This document shows positions 3,095-8,602 of a stretch of DNA of 64,000 nt, piece by piece; position 1 is the first letter of the stretch; each line of letters begins with the position of its first letter. Position numbers and translations under genes: made by a program. A model generated the notes under the pieces. It was not told where the DNA came from. It ran no database searches and saw only the letters and a list, made by a program, of their open reading frames with translations. The DNA is from Candidatus Latescibacterota bacterium. GTDB lineage: Bacteria > Latescibacterota > UBA2968 > GCA-2709665. The DNA is taken from NCBI GenBank assembly GCA_963667175.2, contig CAXXXF010000018.1:64001-128000 (forward strand), in the 5' to 3' direction.

Positions 3095-3473
3095 GAAAGG
3101 CGGTTAGAAGCGGAACGGCGGATGCAAAAAAGAACAAGGCGCGAAAGACCGTTAGCGTTGGGGGGGTGGTCTTTTTCGTTTTTCCTTCTTCCTCCTTCAA
3201 TCTTCCTTTTTCCTTTTGTCTTTAATCCAAGCTGACACTGTCGGCTGAACGCTCTGTTTCTCTTTGTGTCTTCGTGTCTTTGTGTGAGATGAATGTCGTT
3301 TTTGATCTTTGCTGATTGCTGACAACTGACCGCTGATAGCTGCTTCTCAACGGCAGGGAATTTGGGGAGATGTAGTTCTTGACTTTGATCCTGGTCTTTT
3401 GATTCAAGCCGACTGCCGAGAGCTTATTGCTGATCGCTGCTTTTCTTCCTTCTTCGTTCTTCCTTTTTCCTTC
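3095..3473. repeat. Mosaic of short degenerate tandem repeats (7-mer and 9-mer tracts)
   Basis: TTCTTCC-type tracts (3172-3223, 3441-3473), TCTTTGTGT/CTTCGTGTC tract (3260-3287), GCTGAnn tracts (3311-3342, 3409-3440), CTTGAC/TTTGATC tract (3376-3404). Purine-rich arm 3095-3150 is loosely complementary to 3168-3217. Confidence 0.75.
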
Positions 3474-4587
3474 ATGGCGCCGCGCTTGCGCCCGCCAGCG
3501 ATCTGGCCCCATGAGATGGCTTGCCTCCGGAGCGACGCGCCTGGATGAGCTCGGAGACCACGCTGATGGCGATTTCCTCCGGTGAGTCCGCGCCAATGTC
3601 CAGCCCGATTGGCGCGTGGATCTCGTTCAGTCGCTCCCTTCTGATTCCCTTCGCCTCCAGTTCCTTCCACATCAACGCAATCTTGCGCCTGCTGCCGATC
3701 ATGCCGATGTAGGCGGCGTCCGCCCATACCGCCTGTTCCACCACCGGCTTGTCGTGCTGGTGTCCCCGGGTCACCGCGACAATATAGGACAGGTCGTCGA
3801 TTTCCAGGTGTTGAAACGCCGTTTCCATCTCCAGCGTGAGCGTCTCGTCCGCCATCGGAAAACGCTCCTTGTTGGCGAACATGGGGCGGTCGTCGATGAC
3901 GACGATGCGAAAGCCCACGGTGACCGCGATCCGGGCGATGGCGAACGAAACGTGCCCCCCGCCGAAGAGGTAAAGCGTGGGCTCCGGGCAGACCGACTCC
4001 ATGAAGACCTTCACGGGGCCGCCGCAATCAACTGCGTCCAGCGACACCACCTCCAGCAGGTCCTCCGGGATTGTTTCCATGTCCGCCACTTCGCTCAGGA
4101 TCGCGTCGTCGGCCTCCGGGCGCCCCAACGACCCCACCGTCGTCCCGTCGGCGCGCACCAGAAGCTTGGCGCTCCAATTCGACGGATCCCCTCCGGACAC
4201 GAGGGTGGCCAGCACCGCCGATTCCCGGGCTTTTCGGACCTCCCCCACGGTCTCGAGCACGTTCTCGGACCGGCCCCGGTACAGAGGCTCCGTGAAGATT
4301 TCCACGTTTCCGCCGCAGTTCAAGCCATTCTCGCCGGCATGTTCTTCGGTCAGAATAAAGCGCTGAAGCGTGGGAACACCGCTTTCCATCACCTCACGGG
4401 CTTCCGCCCAGACGTCCGCCTCGAGGCACCCGCCGCCCACCGTACCCACAATCTGGCCGTCGGGACACACCAGCATCTTGGCCTTCTTGCTCATCGGCAA
4501 GGATCCCTTGCTGGAGACAATTGTCGACAGCGCGGCGTTCTGTCCCGACGAAATCAGGTCCAGAGCTTCTGAAAACACGTCTTTCAT
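3472..4587 (-). CDS. xdhC: XdhC/CoxI family molybdenum-cofactor insertion chaperone
   Basis: GTVGGGCLE, GLNCGG, LYLFGGGHV, VTRGHQHD, YIGMIGSRRK and APIGLDIGADSPEEIAISV motifs. Duplicated N-terminal XdhC domain. Confidence 0.92.
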   Translation of the reverse strand: MKDVFSEALDLISSGQNAALSTIVSSKGSLPMSKKAKMLVCPDGQIVGTVGGGCLEADVWAEAREVMESGVPTLQRFILTEEHAGENGLNCGGNVEIFTEPLYRGRSENVLETVGEVRKARESAVLATLVSGGDPSNWSAKLLVRADGTTVGSLGRPEADDAILSEVADMETIPEDLLEVVSLDAVDCGGPVKVFMESVCPEPTLYLFGGGHVSFAIARIAVTVGFRIVVIDDRPMFANKERFPMADETLTLEMETAFQHLEIDDLSYIVAVTRGHQHDKPVVEQAVWADAAYIGMIGSRRKIALMWKELEAKGIRRERLNEIHAPIGLDIGADSPEEIAISVVSELIQARRSGGKPSHGARSLAGASAAP

Positions 4588-4615
4588 CAGAACCACCCCC
4601 TTAACCCCATTAATT

Positions 4616-4668
4616 CATGAAACGGAACAAACATGAAACGGAACAAACATGGATGGACAGGATGAAAA
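4616..4668 (+). repeat. 16-bp tandem duplication plus purine-rich short repeat
   Basis: CATGAAACGGAACAAA twice (4616-4647), then CATGGATGGACAGGATG. Confidence 0.85.
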
Positions 4669-4669
4669 C

Positions 4670-6387
4670 CTAAGGCGGCTTCGCTTTGCTCAGCCGCAAC
4701 CAAAAAGTGTGGTATTGAAGCGGCAGGTTGTTTTGTGGTATGAAAAGCGGCGTTCGTCCGTTATGATGGTGGTCCCGACCGCCATCAATCCAAGGAGGAA
4801 CGCCGTGAACGACTTCGTGGACCAATATAATGAAAAAATCAGTGGCGTGGTATCGTGTTTTGATCGGGTTCTGTTCAAGGGGTACCTGCCGTTGGGATTT
4901 GGCGATGCGATGGAGCGTTTCATGGGTAATCAGGGTTTTTTGTTGAAGGACTTCAAGCGTTTTGTGACGATGCATTCCAAAACGATCAAAGCCCACGCGG
5001 AGGCGATGGCGAGCAGGCACAAGCGCCCGTTCCTCTATCTCGACCGCAACACCGTCAGGAAAGAGGAGGAAGCGCGACGCATCGCCCAACGAGATGGGAT
5101 CACCCGCGGCCTGGTCTGTGTGTACCGCGCCGTGGAGGGCTGTCAGAGTTTCAAGCTGGTTCCAGGGAAAGGAAGGCCTCGCCTGCGCAACGCCCGGCGG
5201 AAGTGCCTGTGCTACTATTTCTACTATATCGACCGTGAGTTCGGGTTGCTGCATATCCGCATCCAGTCGTGGTTCCCCCTGGTGGTGCAGGTCTGTCTCA
5301 ATGGCCACGAATACCTGGCGCGCAAGCTCGATAAAAACGGCATTGCCTATCGCAAAGCAGACAACGCGTTTCTATGGATCGACGACGTGGCCCGGGCGCA
5401 ACGGTTTGCCGATCGTTTTGTCGAGAAAAATTGGCCGCGCATTCTCTCCGGGCTTGCCCGCAGGGTCAACCCCCTGCTCAAAGACCTGCTTTCGGGAATG
5501 GACTATTACTGGGTCGTTGACCAGGCTGAGTTCGCCACCGACGTGATGTTCACAAGCCCCCACGCCCTGAAGGTGCTGTATGAAAATCTGCTCAGACATA
5601 CGGTGCTGTGCTTCTCTCCCCAGGACATCCTGACCTTCCTGGGACGCAAACTCCACGGCAACTTTCAGGGCGAAGTCCTCACGGACTTCAAAAACAAACG
5701 CCAACCCGGCGCACGGGTCAAACACCGGATGTGTGAGAACTGGATAAAAATGTACGACAAACACGGGCGCGTACTACGCATAGAGACAGTGATCAACCAT
5801 CCAAGGCAGTTCAAGGTCCGCCGCCAGGGCATACGGCAAGGACAACGCGTGATGGGCTGGTATCCCATGGCCAAAGGGGTGGCCAACCTCTACCGCTATC
5901 GGGAGATCTCATTGAAGGCCAACCAACACTATCTTCAGGCGCTGGCAGCAGCACCAGACACCGGGAAGAGCCGTCACAGCCTCGCCGCACTTGCCCGACC
6001 ACGCAGGCACAAGGGGCGGACCTATCGGGGCTTCAATCCCGCCGACACCCGCGACCTCGACCTCTTCACCGCCGTCCTGAAAGGCGAACACGCCCTGATG
6101 GGCTTCCGCAATCGGGACATCCGAAAACACCTCTTCAAACAACCCAGAACCCTCGACCAGCGACGACGACAAGCCAACGCCGTCAGCCGACTCCTCAAAC
6201 GTCTACACGTCCGAGGCCTGATCGCTAAAATACCTCGGTCCAGAAGATGGCGCGTCACACAGGCCGGACACGTCACCCTCGCGACTTCACTGACACTATA
6301 CGACAACCACACAAACCGGAACGCTATCCAAGCAGCATGAACAAACTTCTACGCATCTTGCGTTGAAGTCTTACTGTAAGACTCTAA
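4670..6387 (+). mobile_element. Putative insertion element with hairpin ends and no terminal inverted repeats
   Basis: CTAA at 4670-4673 and 6384-6387. Left hairpin GCGGCT...AGCCGC followed by AACCAAAA. Right hairpins ACGCA-TCT-TGCGT (6351-6363) and AGTCTTAC-T-GTAAGACT (6367-6383). Encloses a single ORF. Confidence 0.55.
4805..6340 (+). CDS. Putative transposase / replication-initiator-like protein with C-terminal winged HTH
   Basis: AGGAGG RBS plus GTG 4805, 511 aa, basic. SCFDRVLFKG, YYFYYIDREFG, QAEFATD and WIKMYDKHGRVLRIETVIN motifs. C-terminal GFRNRDIR...RLLKRLHVRGLIAKIPRSRRWRVT wHTH. Confidence 0.7.
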   Translation: MNDFVDQYNEKISGVVSCFDRVLFKGYLPLGFGDAMERFMGNQGFLLKDFKRFVTMHSKTIKAHAEAMASRHKRPFLYLDRNTVRKEEEARRIAQRDGITRGLVCVYRAVEGCQSFKLVPGKGRPRLRNARRKCLCYYFYYIDREFGLLHIRIQSWFPLVVQVCLNGHEYLARKLDKNGIAYRKADNAFLWIDDVARAQRFADRFVEKNWPRILSGLARRVNPLLKDLLSGMDYYWVVDQAEFATDVMFTSPHALKVLYENLLRHTVLCFSPQDILTFLGRKLHGNFQGEVLTDFKNKRQPGARVKHRMCENWIKMYDKHGRVLRIETVINHPRQFKVRRQGIRQGQRVMGWYPMAKGVANLYRYREISLKANQHYLQALAAAPDTGKSRHSLAALARPRRHKGRTYRGFNPADTRDLDLFTAVLKGEHALMGFRNRDIRKHLFKQPRTLDQRRRQANAVSRLLKRLHVRGLIAKIPRSRRWRVTQAGHVTLATSLTLYDNHTNRNAIQAA

Positions 6388-6390
6388 AAG

Positions 6391-6496
6391 CGCGAGAAAG
6401 GCACGAGAAAACGAACATCAGAAACTGCGAAACACGCGAAAAATACGAAAAATCCGTGGCTGAAATCAGTTGCCACAAGAGGCGCAAAACCACAAT
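6391..6496 (+). repeat. Purine-rich degenerate 9-mer-type repeat tracts
   Basis: CGCGAGAAAGGCACGAGAAAACGAA; CTGCGAAACACGCGAAAAATACGAAAA; GCCACAAGAGGCGCAAAACCACAA. Confidence 0.6.
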
Positions 6497-6626
6497 GTTG
6501 CACGTCAGCCCGACACCCCAACATGACTCCGGCCAAACCGACTTTGGACGAATCAAGGTTTTCGTTATATTCTCCACTCATGTTATTGGAAATCAACCGA
6601 TTACACGAAATTTCCACCGGTTTTCA

Positions 6627-8602
6627 GTAGAGTCGAGAGGTGGCGCGGTGGTGTAGGAGAGGCCTATCTGTTTCCGCCCCTTTCGTCTGGCGGTGCCTCA
6701 ATAGCCGCTCCGCGTTCCGTTTCCACGTCCCGCTCATCGAACCGGACGTGCGGATTTACCGCATCCGGCTCTCGGACAAGGAGTCATGCGTTCGCCCACG
6801 GAAGGTTGTGCGTCTGCACCTCCAGCCGGGTCAGGCCCAACGTATTGTAGAGGACCTCGTCAGGGAGACGGGACGTCCCCTTTCCCGGTATTCGGTACTT
6901 GTTGCACAACCACCAGCGGAGCCGTTGCCGGGTGTGGCTGTCCACACTCCGGTAGGCTTTGCTGACCGGACCAAGACGGAAGTAGTTGCCCCACCCTGTT
7001 AGCTTTCGGTTCAGGTGGGCAATCCGTTCTTGATGGTCTTTCAGCAGCCACCGCCGCGCCGTTGCCTCGCTGATGGCCCGGCAGATGTGCCGGATGGCCT
7101 TCTTTGACGGGCGCGTGCCGATATAGGCCTTTCCCGTCTTTGGTGAGTAACAGCGTTCGATGGTGTAGCCCAGAAAGTCAAATCGTCCTTCAGGAAGCGT
7201 GCATATGCCCGTCTTCTGCTCGTTCACCGTCAACTTGAGCGCCTTCATAATGGATCGCATCGCGCGCATCGCTTCTTTTGCGGTGCCGCGACAGCAGATC
7301 ACAAAATCGTCCGCGTAGTTGACAATATGAGCCTTCAGGCGTTGCTGATGTCCCCGAACCTGCCATCCCAGAATGAACCGCCGCATATACAGGTTCGCCA
7401 GCAGGGGCGAGATCGGGGCGCCTTGCGGTGTCCCCCTTCCCTGATCCTTGTTCGGCGTCGTTCGACGTTTGCGGCCCCGCTTGTCGGTCTCCTCAATCGG
7501 CGCGGTCAGCCACAGCTTGACCAGGCCCAGCATACGCCCGTCACTGATGCGACGCGCCACACATTTCATCAGCTCGGCATGCGGGATCGTGTCAAAGTAA
7601 CCGCTCAAGTCCGCGTCGATCACCTGCGTATGGCCACGGCTCACCAGACTGTGAACCGCCCTGATGGCGTCGTGCGCACTCCGTTTCGGACGGTACGCAT
7701 ACTGCGCCGCTGGCAGGTCCGCCTCAAAGATCGGCTCCAATACCAGCATCGCCGCGGTTTGCACCACCCGATCTTTCACCGTCGGGATGCCCAGCGGCCT
7801 TTGCTTCCCGTTCGGCTTGGGGATATACACCCGACGGATCGGAGACACCCGATACGATTTGCTCCTTACGGCTTCCGACAGTTCGCCTAACCACCGCTTT
7901 TGCCCATATGACTCGATATCCGCAAACGTCTCGCCGTCCACGCCCGCCGCGCCGCCGTTGGCCTTGCAGCAGCGGTACGCATAAAGCAGGATGTCCTCGC
8001 GATACACCTTGTCATACAGCGCGTAGAATCGGTAGCCGGGCGATTCCTTCGCTTTGGCATGCAACGTCCTCTGCAACTTCCGAACCTTTTCCGGAGGTCT
8101 TAGGCTCATACCAATCTCCAGGCTCTCGCTCCTTTGACGTTGCCCTTGAACCAAGGCCCCTTTCCTCCGCCGGCATTACCCGGCTTCTCAGGTACTACGG
8201 GCCTCTCCGCCACCCCACGCGGCCCGGCCTGACCCTCACGGGCTGCCGGTTGGTGTCTCCACCACCGCCTGGGGCTTCCCGTGTTGCGTCGGAACTCCTT
8301 GTATACGTGCCTCCGCCACTACCCCGGCGGGACCGTTGGGTGCTCGCGTTGCCTGCTTCCCCAACGACGGCGGCCTTCCCCGAAATTCAGGCGGGTCGGC
8401 TCCCGCATTACCCTTTTCGAGGCCTGCGCAGCGTTCACTCACGTTTCGGCCCGCATACTCGCCAAGTCGCCTTGCGACCCTCTACACCGGAGGCTTCGGA
8501 GATGTCGTTTCCTACGTCCCCGCTCCGATTGCTACCGACTGTGGCAACACTTGTCGGGTGGGACTCTCACCCACTGAAGTTCCGCGCCTTTTCACGGCGC
8601 AC
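6627..8602 (-). mobile_element. Complete group II intron (IIB-type, bacterial class E/F-like), 1976 nt
   Basis: 5' end GTGCGCCGTGAAAAGGCGCG at 8602. Domain V GAGCCGGATGCGGTAAATCCGCACGTCCGGTTC (6771-6739). 3' end CCACCTCTCGACTCTAC at 6627. Candidate EBS1 UGAAU (8389-8385) pairs with the 5' exon end ATTCA. Confidence 0.92.
6784..8109 (-). CDS. ltrA: Group II intron reverse transcriptase/maturase, no endonuclease domain
   Basis: RPLGIPTVKDRVVQ, DADLSGYFD, GTPQGAPISPLLANLY, YADD, FDFLG and maturase GWGNYF motifs. 441 aa from ATG 8109 with GGAGA RBS. Confidence 0.95.
   Translation of the reverse strand: MSLRPPEKVRKLQRTLHAKAKESPGYRFYALYDKVYREDILLYAYRCCKANGGAAGVDGETFADIESYGQKRWLGELSEAVRSKSYRVSPIRRVYIPKPNGKQRPLGIPTVKDRVVQTAAMLVLEPIFEADLPAAQYAYRPKRSAHDAIRAVHSLVSRGHTQVIDADLSGYFDTIPHAELMKCVARRISDGRMLGLVKLWLTAPIEETDKRGRKRRTTPNKDQGRGTPQGAPISPLLANLYMRRFILGWQVRGHQQRLKAHIVNYADDFVICCRGTAKEAMRAMRSIMKALKLTVNEQKTGICTLPEGRFDFLGYTIERCYSPKTGKAYIGTRPSKKAIRHICRAISEATARRWLLKDHQERIAHLNRKLTGWGNYFRLGPVSKAYRSVDSHTRQRLRWWLCNKYRIPGKGTSRLPDEVLYNTLGLTRLEVQTHNLPWANA

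Follow-up and report, generated by a model that had tools for sequence, protein, structure and literature searches.

An insertion sequence family of Latescibacterota and other phyla, probably moved by a Rep_trans-like tyrosine nuclease

Transposons are classed by the chemistry of their transposases, which are DDE, DEDD, HUH, serine, tyrosine recombinase, Cas1 or reverse transcriptase enzymes. The Rep_trans initiators (PF02486; RepC of pT181, RepD of pC221 and Rep of pSTK1; structures 4CWC and 4CIJ) have a curved sheet of two modules like that of the TATA-binding protein (TBP), a strand tyrosine flanked by two basic residues ([KR]-x-Y-x-K), acidic residues both on the strand that opens each module and on the one after the tyrosine strand (…R-x-E), then a separate domain for DNA binding, and a CTAA-type motif where DNA must be cut. 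The roles that the available parts of the literature give them are plasmid replication, phage replication and conjugative relaxation (PMC5714925; PMC13107129). The MOBT relaxases of ICESt3, Tn916 and ICEBs1 (RelSt3, Orf20 and NicK) are Rep_trans relatives fused to a helix-turn-helix (HTH) domain; according to the excerpts available, they nick CT'AA beside or inside a GC-rich hairpin and carry out strand transfer, and this conserved nick site is identical to that of the Rep_trans origin (PMC9371924). According to the Replitron preprint, IS200/IS605, IS91/ISCR and Helitrons are the Rep-mobilised transposons described to date, and they are presented there as moved by HUH enzymes. In a stretch of 64,000 nucleotides from a Candidatus Latescibacterota genome (contig CAXXXF010000018.1, positions 64,001 to 128,000; hereafter, the window), we found one copy of a 1.72-kb insertion sequence (IS), at positions 4669/4670-6387, whose sole gene encodes a putative transposase of 511 amino acids (aa). 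It probably belongs to a previously undescribed family of IS that a Rep_trans-like tyrosine nuclease moves via single-strand or rolling-circle transfer. With less assurance, we lean towards regarding it as the founding example of a new prokaryotic transposon superfamily, built on a TBP-fold, Rep_trans-like tyrosine nuclease in which Y138-x-Y140 may form a second, pseudo-symmetric active site, and as the first non-HUH rolling-circle or single-strand transposon.

The element is mobile and has fixed ends. A BLAST comparison with its own genome (G000; 5.52 Mb in 18 contigs) found nine full-length copies, in which similarity starts at window position 4669 or 4670 and stops at 6387, and a protein search gave 18 matches to the element protein. 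Identity is 100% over the aligned length for three copies (one of which, in the chimeric pair described below, is missing its first 36 bp), ~96.7% for five full copies, and ~91-95% for one that carries internal insertions; a further copy is interrupted by a contig end. The flanks differ at each of the nine copies, whereas the left border always reads CCTAAG (TCTAAG once) and the right border TCTAA, so that the CTAA reported by the first-pass annotation at both borders is present in nine out of nine. As in other insertion sequences, there are many copies with identical ends at unrelated sites, empty sites, a patchy distribution and a single gene, and the copy in the window is intact and probably active. 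An integrated plasmid or phage was ruled out, since this is a single-gene 1.7-kb unit found at many chromosomal sites. One locus of the same genome (G000:C15:527097-530190; loci L003 and L010) is a chimeric double copy, in which a copy that stops at base 1413 (…GTCCTGAA) continues at base 37 of a second one, just past the left hairpin and the AACCAAA box; it could have originated in faulty termination, recombination or misassembly.

The two ends are different from each other. The left end opens with the pentamer CCTAA (4669..4673, + strand), proposed here as the nick or target motif, followed by a subterminal hairpin, GCGGCT-11 nt-AGCCGC (4675..4697), and, directly 3' of it, by the conserved box AACCAAAAAG (4698..4707), a candidate protein-binding site. 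The right end has a hairpin, CTTC-T-ACGCA-tct-TGCGT-T-GAAG (6346..6368), found at the same place with other stem sequences in other groups of copies; a second one, AGTCTTAC-t-GTAAGACT (6367..6383), which is lineage specific and poorly conserved elsewhere; and the closing pentamer TCTAA (6383..6387). There are no terminal inverted repeats: whatever the register, no more than 12 of 37 bases match between the two ends. The left stem-loop, the two right stem-loops and the lack of inverted repeats had all been noticed in the first-pass annotation and were found again at these positions. The folding energy of the window ends is ~2 standard deviations below that of shuffled sequences (z ~ -2), which for a single copy is not beyond chance. 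The hairpins are credible because they are conserved across phyla with compensatory changes in their stems, and not because of their folding energy: among the pattern-scanned loci, the left stem appears as GCGGC/GCCGC, GCGGGC/GCCCGC, GCGGCC/GGCCGC, GCGGCT/AGCCGC and GTGGCC/GGCCAC. A possible pairing of CCT in the left pentamer with AGG in the box past the hairpin was examined by eye across the groups, which revealed no covariation.

The same ends were recovered from other genomes. In a scan of species-representative genomes, relatives were encoded in 548 stretches, and 79 loci were retained, with titles that include Latescibacterota, Planctomycetota, Desulfobacterales, Verrucomicrobiota, Lentisphaeria, Victivallales, Terriglobia, Armatimonadetes and Myxococcota, among others. 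When the ends were defined independently in nine multi-copy groups from other genomes, eight of them (37 copies, in addition to the nine of the own genome) followed one plan in two phyla. On the left, it consists of a variable flank, C[CT][TC]A[AG]-C/G, a GC hairpin and AACCAAA.AGG; on the right, of a hairpin, ~20 nt ending in AAGA[CA], TCTAA and a variable flank. The first-pass annotation had asked for homologue flanks with conserved hairpins and fixed boundaries, and this is what these eight groups have. Across nine groups, 44 copies have clean ends. Their left pentamer fits C[CT][TC]A[AG], with C as base 1 in 43; the right one is TCTA in all 44 with a final A in 41, and flank positions outside the pentamers have no consensus. 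A pattern scan of 37 distinct loci, several of which had too little flank, found the canonical left end in ~20 and a right end of the AAGAnTCTAA type in 27. One group (group A) has intact left ends in 9/9 copies and truncated right ends in 2/9.

Some of these loci carry peculiarities at their borders. In two loci of an Isosphaeraceae metagenome-assembled genome (MAG; CAWAHD, loci L095 and L099), a common 25-bp extension of the left end starts with CTAAG or CTAGG and the flanks beyond it differ; from the sequence, it looks as if an upstream CTAA-like motif had been used as left boundary in one transposition. In a Kuenenia MAG (L046) and in locus L043, the right TCTAA runs directly into more TCTAA units (…GATTCTAA-GGTCTAA-AGTCTAA and …GACTCTAA-ATTCTAA, respectively), which may be a preferred target context or leftovers of earlier events. 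Loci L076-L083 and L108, from the Planctomycetota MAG CAVXHV, hold a 2.17-kb relative with a 47% identical protein and without canonical pentamers: its left end reads TTATAG-CAGCATAGCCGC-AACCAAAGG after nTAyAC flanks, and its right end …CGTATCATT followed by nTACG.

Comparison with uninterrupted sites suggests where the element joins its target. The window copy lies inside a dispersed purine-rich repeat that flanks it on both sides (4603..4668 on the left, continued at 6388..6626 on the right) without being part of the element, in agreement with the purine-rich tracts mentioned in the first-pass annotation; the 14-mer of this repeat occurs at 12 genome sites. Three paralogous, uninterrupted copies of the repeat read ...GGATGAAAA-CCAAA-AAGCGCGAC..., and the window site reads ...GGATGAAAA-CCTAA-[element ending in TCTAA]-AAGCGCGAG...; therefore, the target already had one CCTAA-like pentamer. 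An orthologous empty site, GGAGCCCCTTAGGGAGGG, was found in a related genome (G009) for a miniature derivative of the element (G000:C2:356878-357132; see below), the filled site being GGAGCCCCT|GGCGCGG...GATG|CTAAGGGAGGG. The empty site holds a single pentamer, and the GG after the left CCT of that miniature element is not target DNA. Three more elements gave no empty site: the junction region of a miniature element on C12 was too diverged to align in five relatives, the left flank alone of an element on C16 was found in G009, and the relatives hold other DNA at the site of an element on C6.

We numbered the pentamer bases from 1 to 5, with P for the left and Q for the right one. P1 varies among otherwise near-identical copies of the own genome (C eight times and T once, one case and hence weak evidence), and at least this base of the left pentamer is, from sequence comparison, target derived. 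Q5 varies within groups of 98.8-99.9% identical copies, being A or T in group C and A, T or G in group D, and must therefore come from the target. P4-P5 differ by element subfamily (AA, AG, GG or AT), track the phylogeny of the copies in group A, and are missing from the empty site of G009; hence, they are part of the element. Taken together, the behavior of P1, Q5 and P4-P5 leaves three candidate positions for the junction, after pentamer base 1, 2 or 3. CTAA or TCTAA stands at both borders and at the empty site, beside hairpins. P2-P3 are constant within groups and different between them (CCC in 9/9 and 2/2, CTT in 6/6, CCT in 5/5 and elsewhere), which would be simpler to explain if they were inherited with the element, with the junction after base 1 (Y'CTAA).

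Another line of evidence comes from miniature elements. Terminal stretches of the element, 55-64 bp of its right end and 35-50 bp of its left, recur at many other places of the genome, where they bound units of 215-265 bp (~15 full-length and many partial), and a pattern count gave 24 left ends in total. The left end of these units, CCT-nn-C/G followed by the hairpin GCGGCTTCGC...AGCCGC and AACCAAA, and the right end, ACGCA..TGCGT followed by AGTCTTACTGTAAGACT and CTAA, are those of the full element, while the interior is unrelated. Elements reduced to their ends are as expected if the ends are the sites at which the protein of the full element acts. Some of them combine a left CCTGG, CCTAT or CCTAG with CTAA at the right end, and the variants on the left track element subfamilies. 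Miniature elements (e.g., C14:132055-132279, internal bases 77-107) contain an internal palindrome, CACTCCCCCCTTGAGGGGGAGT, which also occurs by itself at dozens of places, in this genome as well as in related ones, and may be a separate small repeat family. The same genome has a second element of 1.8 kb (G000:C4:389880-391697 and C2:20408-22244) whose protein is 31% identical to the one studied. It follows the same end plan with CTAG in place of CTAA (left, TCTAG-C plus the hairpin GAGGC-ttc-GCCTC; right, …GGCTAGAG), and solo left ends of this paralogue were found at C14:137872, C15:526922 and C15:120564.

The gene of the element (4805..6340, + strand) starts with a GTG 7 nt after AGGAGG and ends with the TGA stop at 6338-6340. 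Its frame is open for 563 aa from an ATG at 4649, outside the element, and is the sole long plus-strand frame at window positions 4200-6900; the 511 aa counted from the GTG are the length of most homologues. The product is basic (isoelectric point 10.5, with 96 K+R versus 44 D+E) and ends in a winged HTH of the MarR/HxlR type, a DNA-binding domain (residues ~390-511; 5972..6337). The remaining residues, 1-385 (4805..5959), form the domain with the candidate active site. The first-pass annotation had described a basic 511-aa protein with a C-terminal winged HTH and no evident DDE or HUH motif, and all of this stood; no DDE, HUH or other transposase Pfam family was matched, even at E<=10. Scanned singly, 69 family members matched in Pfam only C-terminal winged-helix families (e.g., HVO_A0261_N in 24/69). 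PF02486 was matched neither by the window protein (E<=1), nor by its N-terminal domain (E<=10), nor by the 69 members (E<=0.1), and it was not found in the six-frame translation of the genome at E<=10. Searches of the PDB by sequence and profile gave sub-threshold matches only (E>=0.04), the best being regulators similar to the C-terminal winged helix.

The structural model is more informative. AlphaFold2 predicts residues 1-385 with high confidence (pLDDT 95.1, pTM 0.92) as a crescent-shaped sheet of two five-strand, TBP-like modules related by pseudo-twofold symmetry, the topology that defines Rep_trans. In a comparison with 48,161 PDB chains, RepDE and RepSTK1 were the sole non-TBP matches over the whole domain among the matches listed, and most others listed span residues ~240-385 only. 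Foldseek placed chains of 4cij at ranks 2-5 (probability 0.89-0.93) and gave 4cwe_A 0.82; nothing in the PDB reached E<=1e-3 with this tool, and the weak rows also include unrelated two-domain enzymes. In the viral library BFVD there were six matches at E<=1e-3, including a giant-virus TBP and one named Inoviridae protein. A0A345MNV4, listed there at E 1.0e-3, is an inovirus Rep_trans initiator according to the accessible part of its description (PMC13107129). These structure scores are moderate: they give the fold class and do not prove homology. From the model, the transposase most likely belongs to the Rep_trans structural class. The earlier proposal of a Rep_trans-type enzyme would have failed on an RNase H/DDE fold or a plain regulator; no RNase H-like fold was among the structure matches listed, and the double TBP-like module is not that of a plain regulator. 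Thus, the structural half of that proposal was borne out, while profile-profile comparison with Rep_trans gave no significant match. An HUH enzyme was ruled out by the fold (TBP-like and not HUH/RRM) and by the motifs, as no HUH motif or Y2 transposase family was matched in Pfam at E<=1.

Conservation was read from the 69-sequence family alignment. D20, R21, E111, Y138, Y140, N166, N187, W236, R325 and E327 are present in 69/69, E242, Y317 and K319 in 68/69, and D246 and K315 in 67/69; the sole sequence without Y317 is aberrant throughout the region. The segments QAEFATD, MYDK and LRIE singled out in the first-pass annotation are thus real and fall in nearly invariant columns. In the model, D20 is on strand 12-27, Q-x-E242-x-A-x-D246 on 235-249, K315-x-Y317-x-K319 on 312-319, and L324-R325-x-E327 on 323-330; i.e., the candidate residues occupy the opening strand of both modules and a pair of neighboring strands in module 2. 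K315 and K319 flank the tyrosine two positions to either side. In RepDE, strand 10 carries the nucleophile Y191, flanked by R189 and K193, and the metal is bound by D46 (central N-terminal strand), D142 (strand 6) and E214 (strand 11) (Carr et al., PMC4797284). By strand, these positions correspond to those of the candidate residues. The motifs of Rep_trans are N' (D), I (RxD), II (T/SxY/ExG), III (YxKxxE) and IV (W/LxRxE) (PMC5714925), and an alignment of 12 Rep_trans proteins shows the corresponding blocks TRLDLAFD, IRIYNK and WRVE. Judged by order and strand position rather than by superposition, the candidate residues appear to follow the Rep_trans motifs, with E242 in the place of the RxD aspartate of motif I. 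Module 1 has its own invariant or conserved residues, Y138-x-Y140, E111 and R152, on strands pseudo-symmetric to those of Y317 and E327, and we speculate from the model that Y138-x-Y140 may supply a second tyrosine.

Independently of the fold, the DNA motif points in the same direction. The (Y)CTAA borders beside hairpins, the CTAA-like target and the Rep_trans-fold protein fit the DNA specificity of Rep_trans; the pT181 hairpin itself reads CCGGCTA-CTCTAA-TAGCCGG, with CTCTAA as the ICRII loop. The first-pass annotation had reached a Rep_trans-like reading without using the CT'AA nick site reported in the accessible portion of the MOBT literature (PMC9371924), with which that reading also agrees.

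Several results weigh against a Rep_trans-like nuclease as the transposase. Residues 1-385 have no match in Pfam (E<=10), NCBIfam or PHROGs. Aligned with hhalign against 12 Rep_trans sequences, the family gave a probability of 0.5% and an E of 0.11 over 23 columns; the only stretch paired is IKMYDK with IRIYNK, the nucleophile motif. With -mact 0.01 the local match shrinks to six columns, and the -glob alignment is meaningless. The active sites were equated by the order of residues and their strands and not by superposed coordinates, and the RxDxAxD / YxK / RxE correspondence put forward in the first-pass annotation likewise stood in order and strand position. Rep_trans motif II has no clear counterpart, motif III lacks its xxE, and the spacing from Y317 to E327 is 10 residues versus 23 in RepC. 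On the DNA side, the CAVXHV group (seven copies) has atypical ends, TA[CT]-rich flanks and no TCTAA, and falls outside the common plan. The empty site in G009 is CCTTA and not CCTAA, and one substitution must be assumed. The published CT'AA position lies after base 3, which would make bases 2-3 target derived, yet P2-P3 are fixed within groups. Finally, a pattern search of the own genome found no head-to-tail junctions (right end straight into left end), circle junctions or tandem copies.

A transposition cycle can be sketched on this basis, in which nicking, nucleophile, strand, nick position and single-stranded intermediate are all inferred. The winged helix and the concave sheet would bind the subterminal hairpins. 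Y317, flanked by K315 and K319 and with a metal on D20, E242/D246 and E327, would then nick the coding strand in the left (Y)CTAA and become joined to the 5' phosphate. The nicked strand would be displaced toward the right end, where a second cleavage, in TCTAA, would free or transfer it. Once joined into a CTAA-like pentamer elsewhere, it would leave the motif on both sides, and the complementary strand would be made by the host. The left end looks origin-like because the motif is followed by a hairpin and a conserved box, as a plasmid nick site is followed by the initiator binding site; the right end looks terminator-like because the hairpins precede the motif. The truncations in group A, the fusion at base 1413 on C15 and the 25-bp extension in Isosphaeraceae fit initiation at the left end with faulty termination, for which IS91-type rolling-circle transposition, as far as the available text on it goes, provides the model (PMC5714925). 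By analogy with the two tyrosines of IS91 and Helitron enzymes, a monomer may do both cleavages if Y138-x-Y140 is a second site.

Two other ways of moving the element were weighed together with a Rep_trans-like rolling-circle or single-strand mechanism. It is improbable, in our opinion, that the TBP-like protein is a transposase with metal-dependent, DDE-style acidic chemistry (D20, E111, E242, D246 and E327) and that CTAA is a target-site duplication left by a 4-base stagger. CTAA does flank all nine own copies, the single pentamer of the empty site also fits a 4-bp duplication, the protein has these five invariant or near-invariant acidic residues, and homology to Rep_trans is not significant at the sequence level. 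However, miniature elements with CCTGG, CCTAT or CCTAG on the left and CTAA on the right, with the left side tracking the subfamily, are not the duplication of one target; moreover, there are no terminal inverted repeats, no RNase H-like structure among the matches listed, and three invariant tyrosines on the concave sheet. A classical DDE transposase was rejected outright, on the fold, the missing inverted repeats and the unequal flank motifs. Marginally less doubtful, though still unlikely, is that a Rep_trans-like nuclease works by peel and paste in the style of IS200/IS605: a single strand would leave as a circle at the replication fork and enter single-stranded target DNA, and the donor would not be copied by a rolling circle. 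The anatomy of IS608-type elements comprises hairpins and a short target beside one end but no inverted repeats, and here too the hairpins are subterminal, inverted repeats are lacking, a short specific target lies by one end and a similar motif closes the other. Yet the 11 copies in the complete genome G007 (4 + and 7 -, with five orientation switches along the chromosome) show no strict link of orientation to replication, weak evidence since the origin was not mapped. The three 100% identical copies (one of them 5'-truncated) and the 3'-truncated or chimeric copies (2/9 in group A; C15:527097-530190) are both at least equally compatible with copying in which termination is faulty, although none of these points is decisive.

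We consider it very improbable that the 511-aa protein, with its TBP-like saddle and winged helix, is only a DNA-binding passenger or regulator and that an unrelated, host-encoded enzyme moves the element. The protein and the end plan co-occur in genomes of different phyla as a single-gene 1.7-2.1-kb unit, and many homologues are alone on contigs of 1.7-2.2 kb. The invariant Tyr, Asp, Glu, Lys and Arg residues on one face of the sheet would be superfluous for mere binding, and the miniature elements retain the ends only, as if the full element provided the enzyme.

The element resembles the Rep_trans initiators in each of the features listed at the outset, but there is no detectable sequence homology, and its catalytic domain has 385 aa versus ~230 aa. 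It also differs from them in the missing motif II, the shorter spacing between motifs III and IV, and the extra E111, Y138, Y140 and R152 on module 1, and in being a chromosomal, multi-copy 1.7-kb element with two different ends rather than a plasmid with one origin. By sequence, the protein falls outside PF02486; by predicted fold, motif order and DNA motif, it appears Rep_trans/MOBT-like. The HTH domain of MOBT relaxases is N-terminal, unlike the C-terminal one found here, and they act on one oriT with handover to a secretion system, while the element studied here is delimited by two ends and is reinserted into its own genome. The archaeal virus and plasmid proteins Rep-Arvir (DUF7845, PF25227) share, from what is accessible of their description, a TBP-fold tyrosine nuclease followed by a winged helix, recognition by structure only, and similar Foldseek matches (giant-virus TBP and the inovirus Rep A0A345MNV4) (PMC13107129). 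However, Rep-Arvir is an archaeal replication initiator whose origin has one downstream hairpin, and the element protein has no Pfam match to PF25227.

IS91/ISCR and Helitrons (HUH Y2) are similar to our element, according to the available excerpts, in having no inverted repeats, no classical duplication, a specific tetranucleotide beside the insertion, one origin-like and one terminator-like end, and copies that may be truncated or extended (PMC5714925). They are moved by an HUH nuclease whose tyrosines sit on a helix, whereas neither the HUH motif nor the Y2 family was found here. TBP itself is a 180-aa, non-catalytic, DNA-bending factor of archaea and eukaryotes; the long insertions, the invariant Tyr, Asp and Glu, and the mobile context point to the element protein being an enzyme. 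Subterminal hairpins, a tetra- or pentanucleotide target at one end and derived miniature elements are characteristic of IS200/IS605 (HUH Y1) and are likewise present here, but the enzyme of that family has 150 aa and an HUH fold, versus 511 aa and another fold, and the replication-linked orientation bias known for that family is not seen in strict form in G007.

The family is large. E<=1e-3 was reached by 5072 of 8000 scored candidates, and among representatives of clusters at 50% identity there were 7501 matches at E<=1e-3, 3514 at E<=1e-10 and 787 at E<=1e-30, although the weakest of the 7501 may cover the winged helix only. Nearly all named homologues are called "hypothetical protein," with no informative name, and NCBIfam has no model for the element protein. 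Our search of the open literature, which left ISfinder outside, turned up no Rep_trans-like or TBP-fold transposase, no hairpin IS with CTAA as target and no IS with ends like these. Seven of 31 related genomes had a match, with counts of 17, 11, 2 and 1 and none in the rest, the patchy spread of an insertion sequence. If the proposed nature of the enzyme is true, a Rep_trans-like transposase would be an added transposase class, and the second, non-HUH lineage of rolling-circle nucleases would also have been recruited for transposition, beyond plasmid and phage replication and conjugation. The Rep_trans superfamily would then hold the same three roles as HUH, i.e., replication, conjugation and transposition. 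Since the family abounds among uncultured members of Planctomycetota, Latescibacterota and other phyla and is unannotated, thousands of IS are currently invisible to genome annotation and to analyses of genome plasticity based on IS. Recognition of a short motif plus a hairpin, with a probable covalent link to DNA, are also the properties that made HUH enzymes useful as DNA-protein coupling tags.

Regarding the genomic neighborhood, an XdhC gene (3472-4596, - strand) precedes the left flank. The purine-rich repeat into which the element is inserted (…GGACAGGATGAAAA-CCAAAAAGCGCGACAAAGGCACGAGAAAACGAACATCAGAAACTACGAAACACGCG…) was found at at least 12 sites of the genome, including G000:C3:249316, C6:571031 and C6(-):53174, and also in related genomes. 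To the right, 239 bp from the end of the element, there is a group II intron with a reverse transcriptase (6627 to ~8576, - strand; Rfam domain matches at 6627-6773 and 8439-8576, reverse transcriptase/maturase open reading frame at 6784-8154). Only 11 bp separate the right end of the element copy on C14 (G000:C14 from ~274548 onward; locus L008, 3175-3749) from an intron 3' end that is 94% identical. Therefore, the same intron is the right-hand neighbor, in the same relative orientation, of two of the nine element copies.

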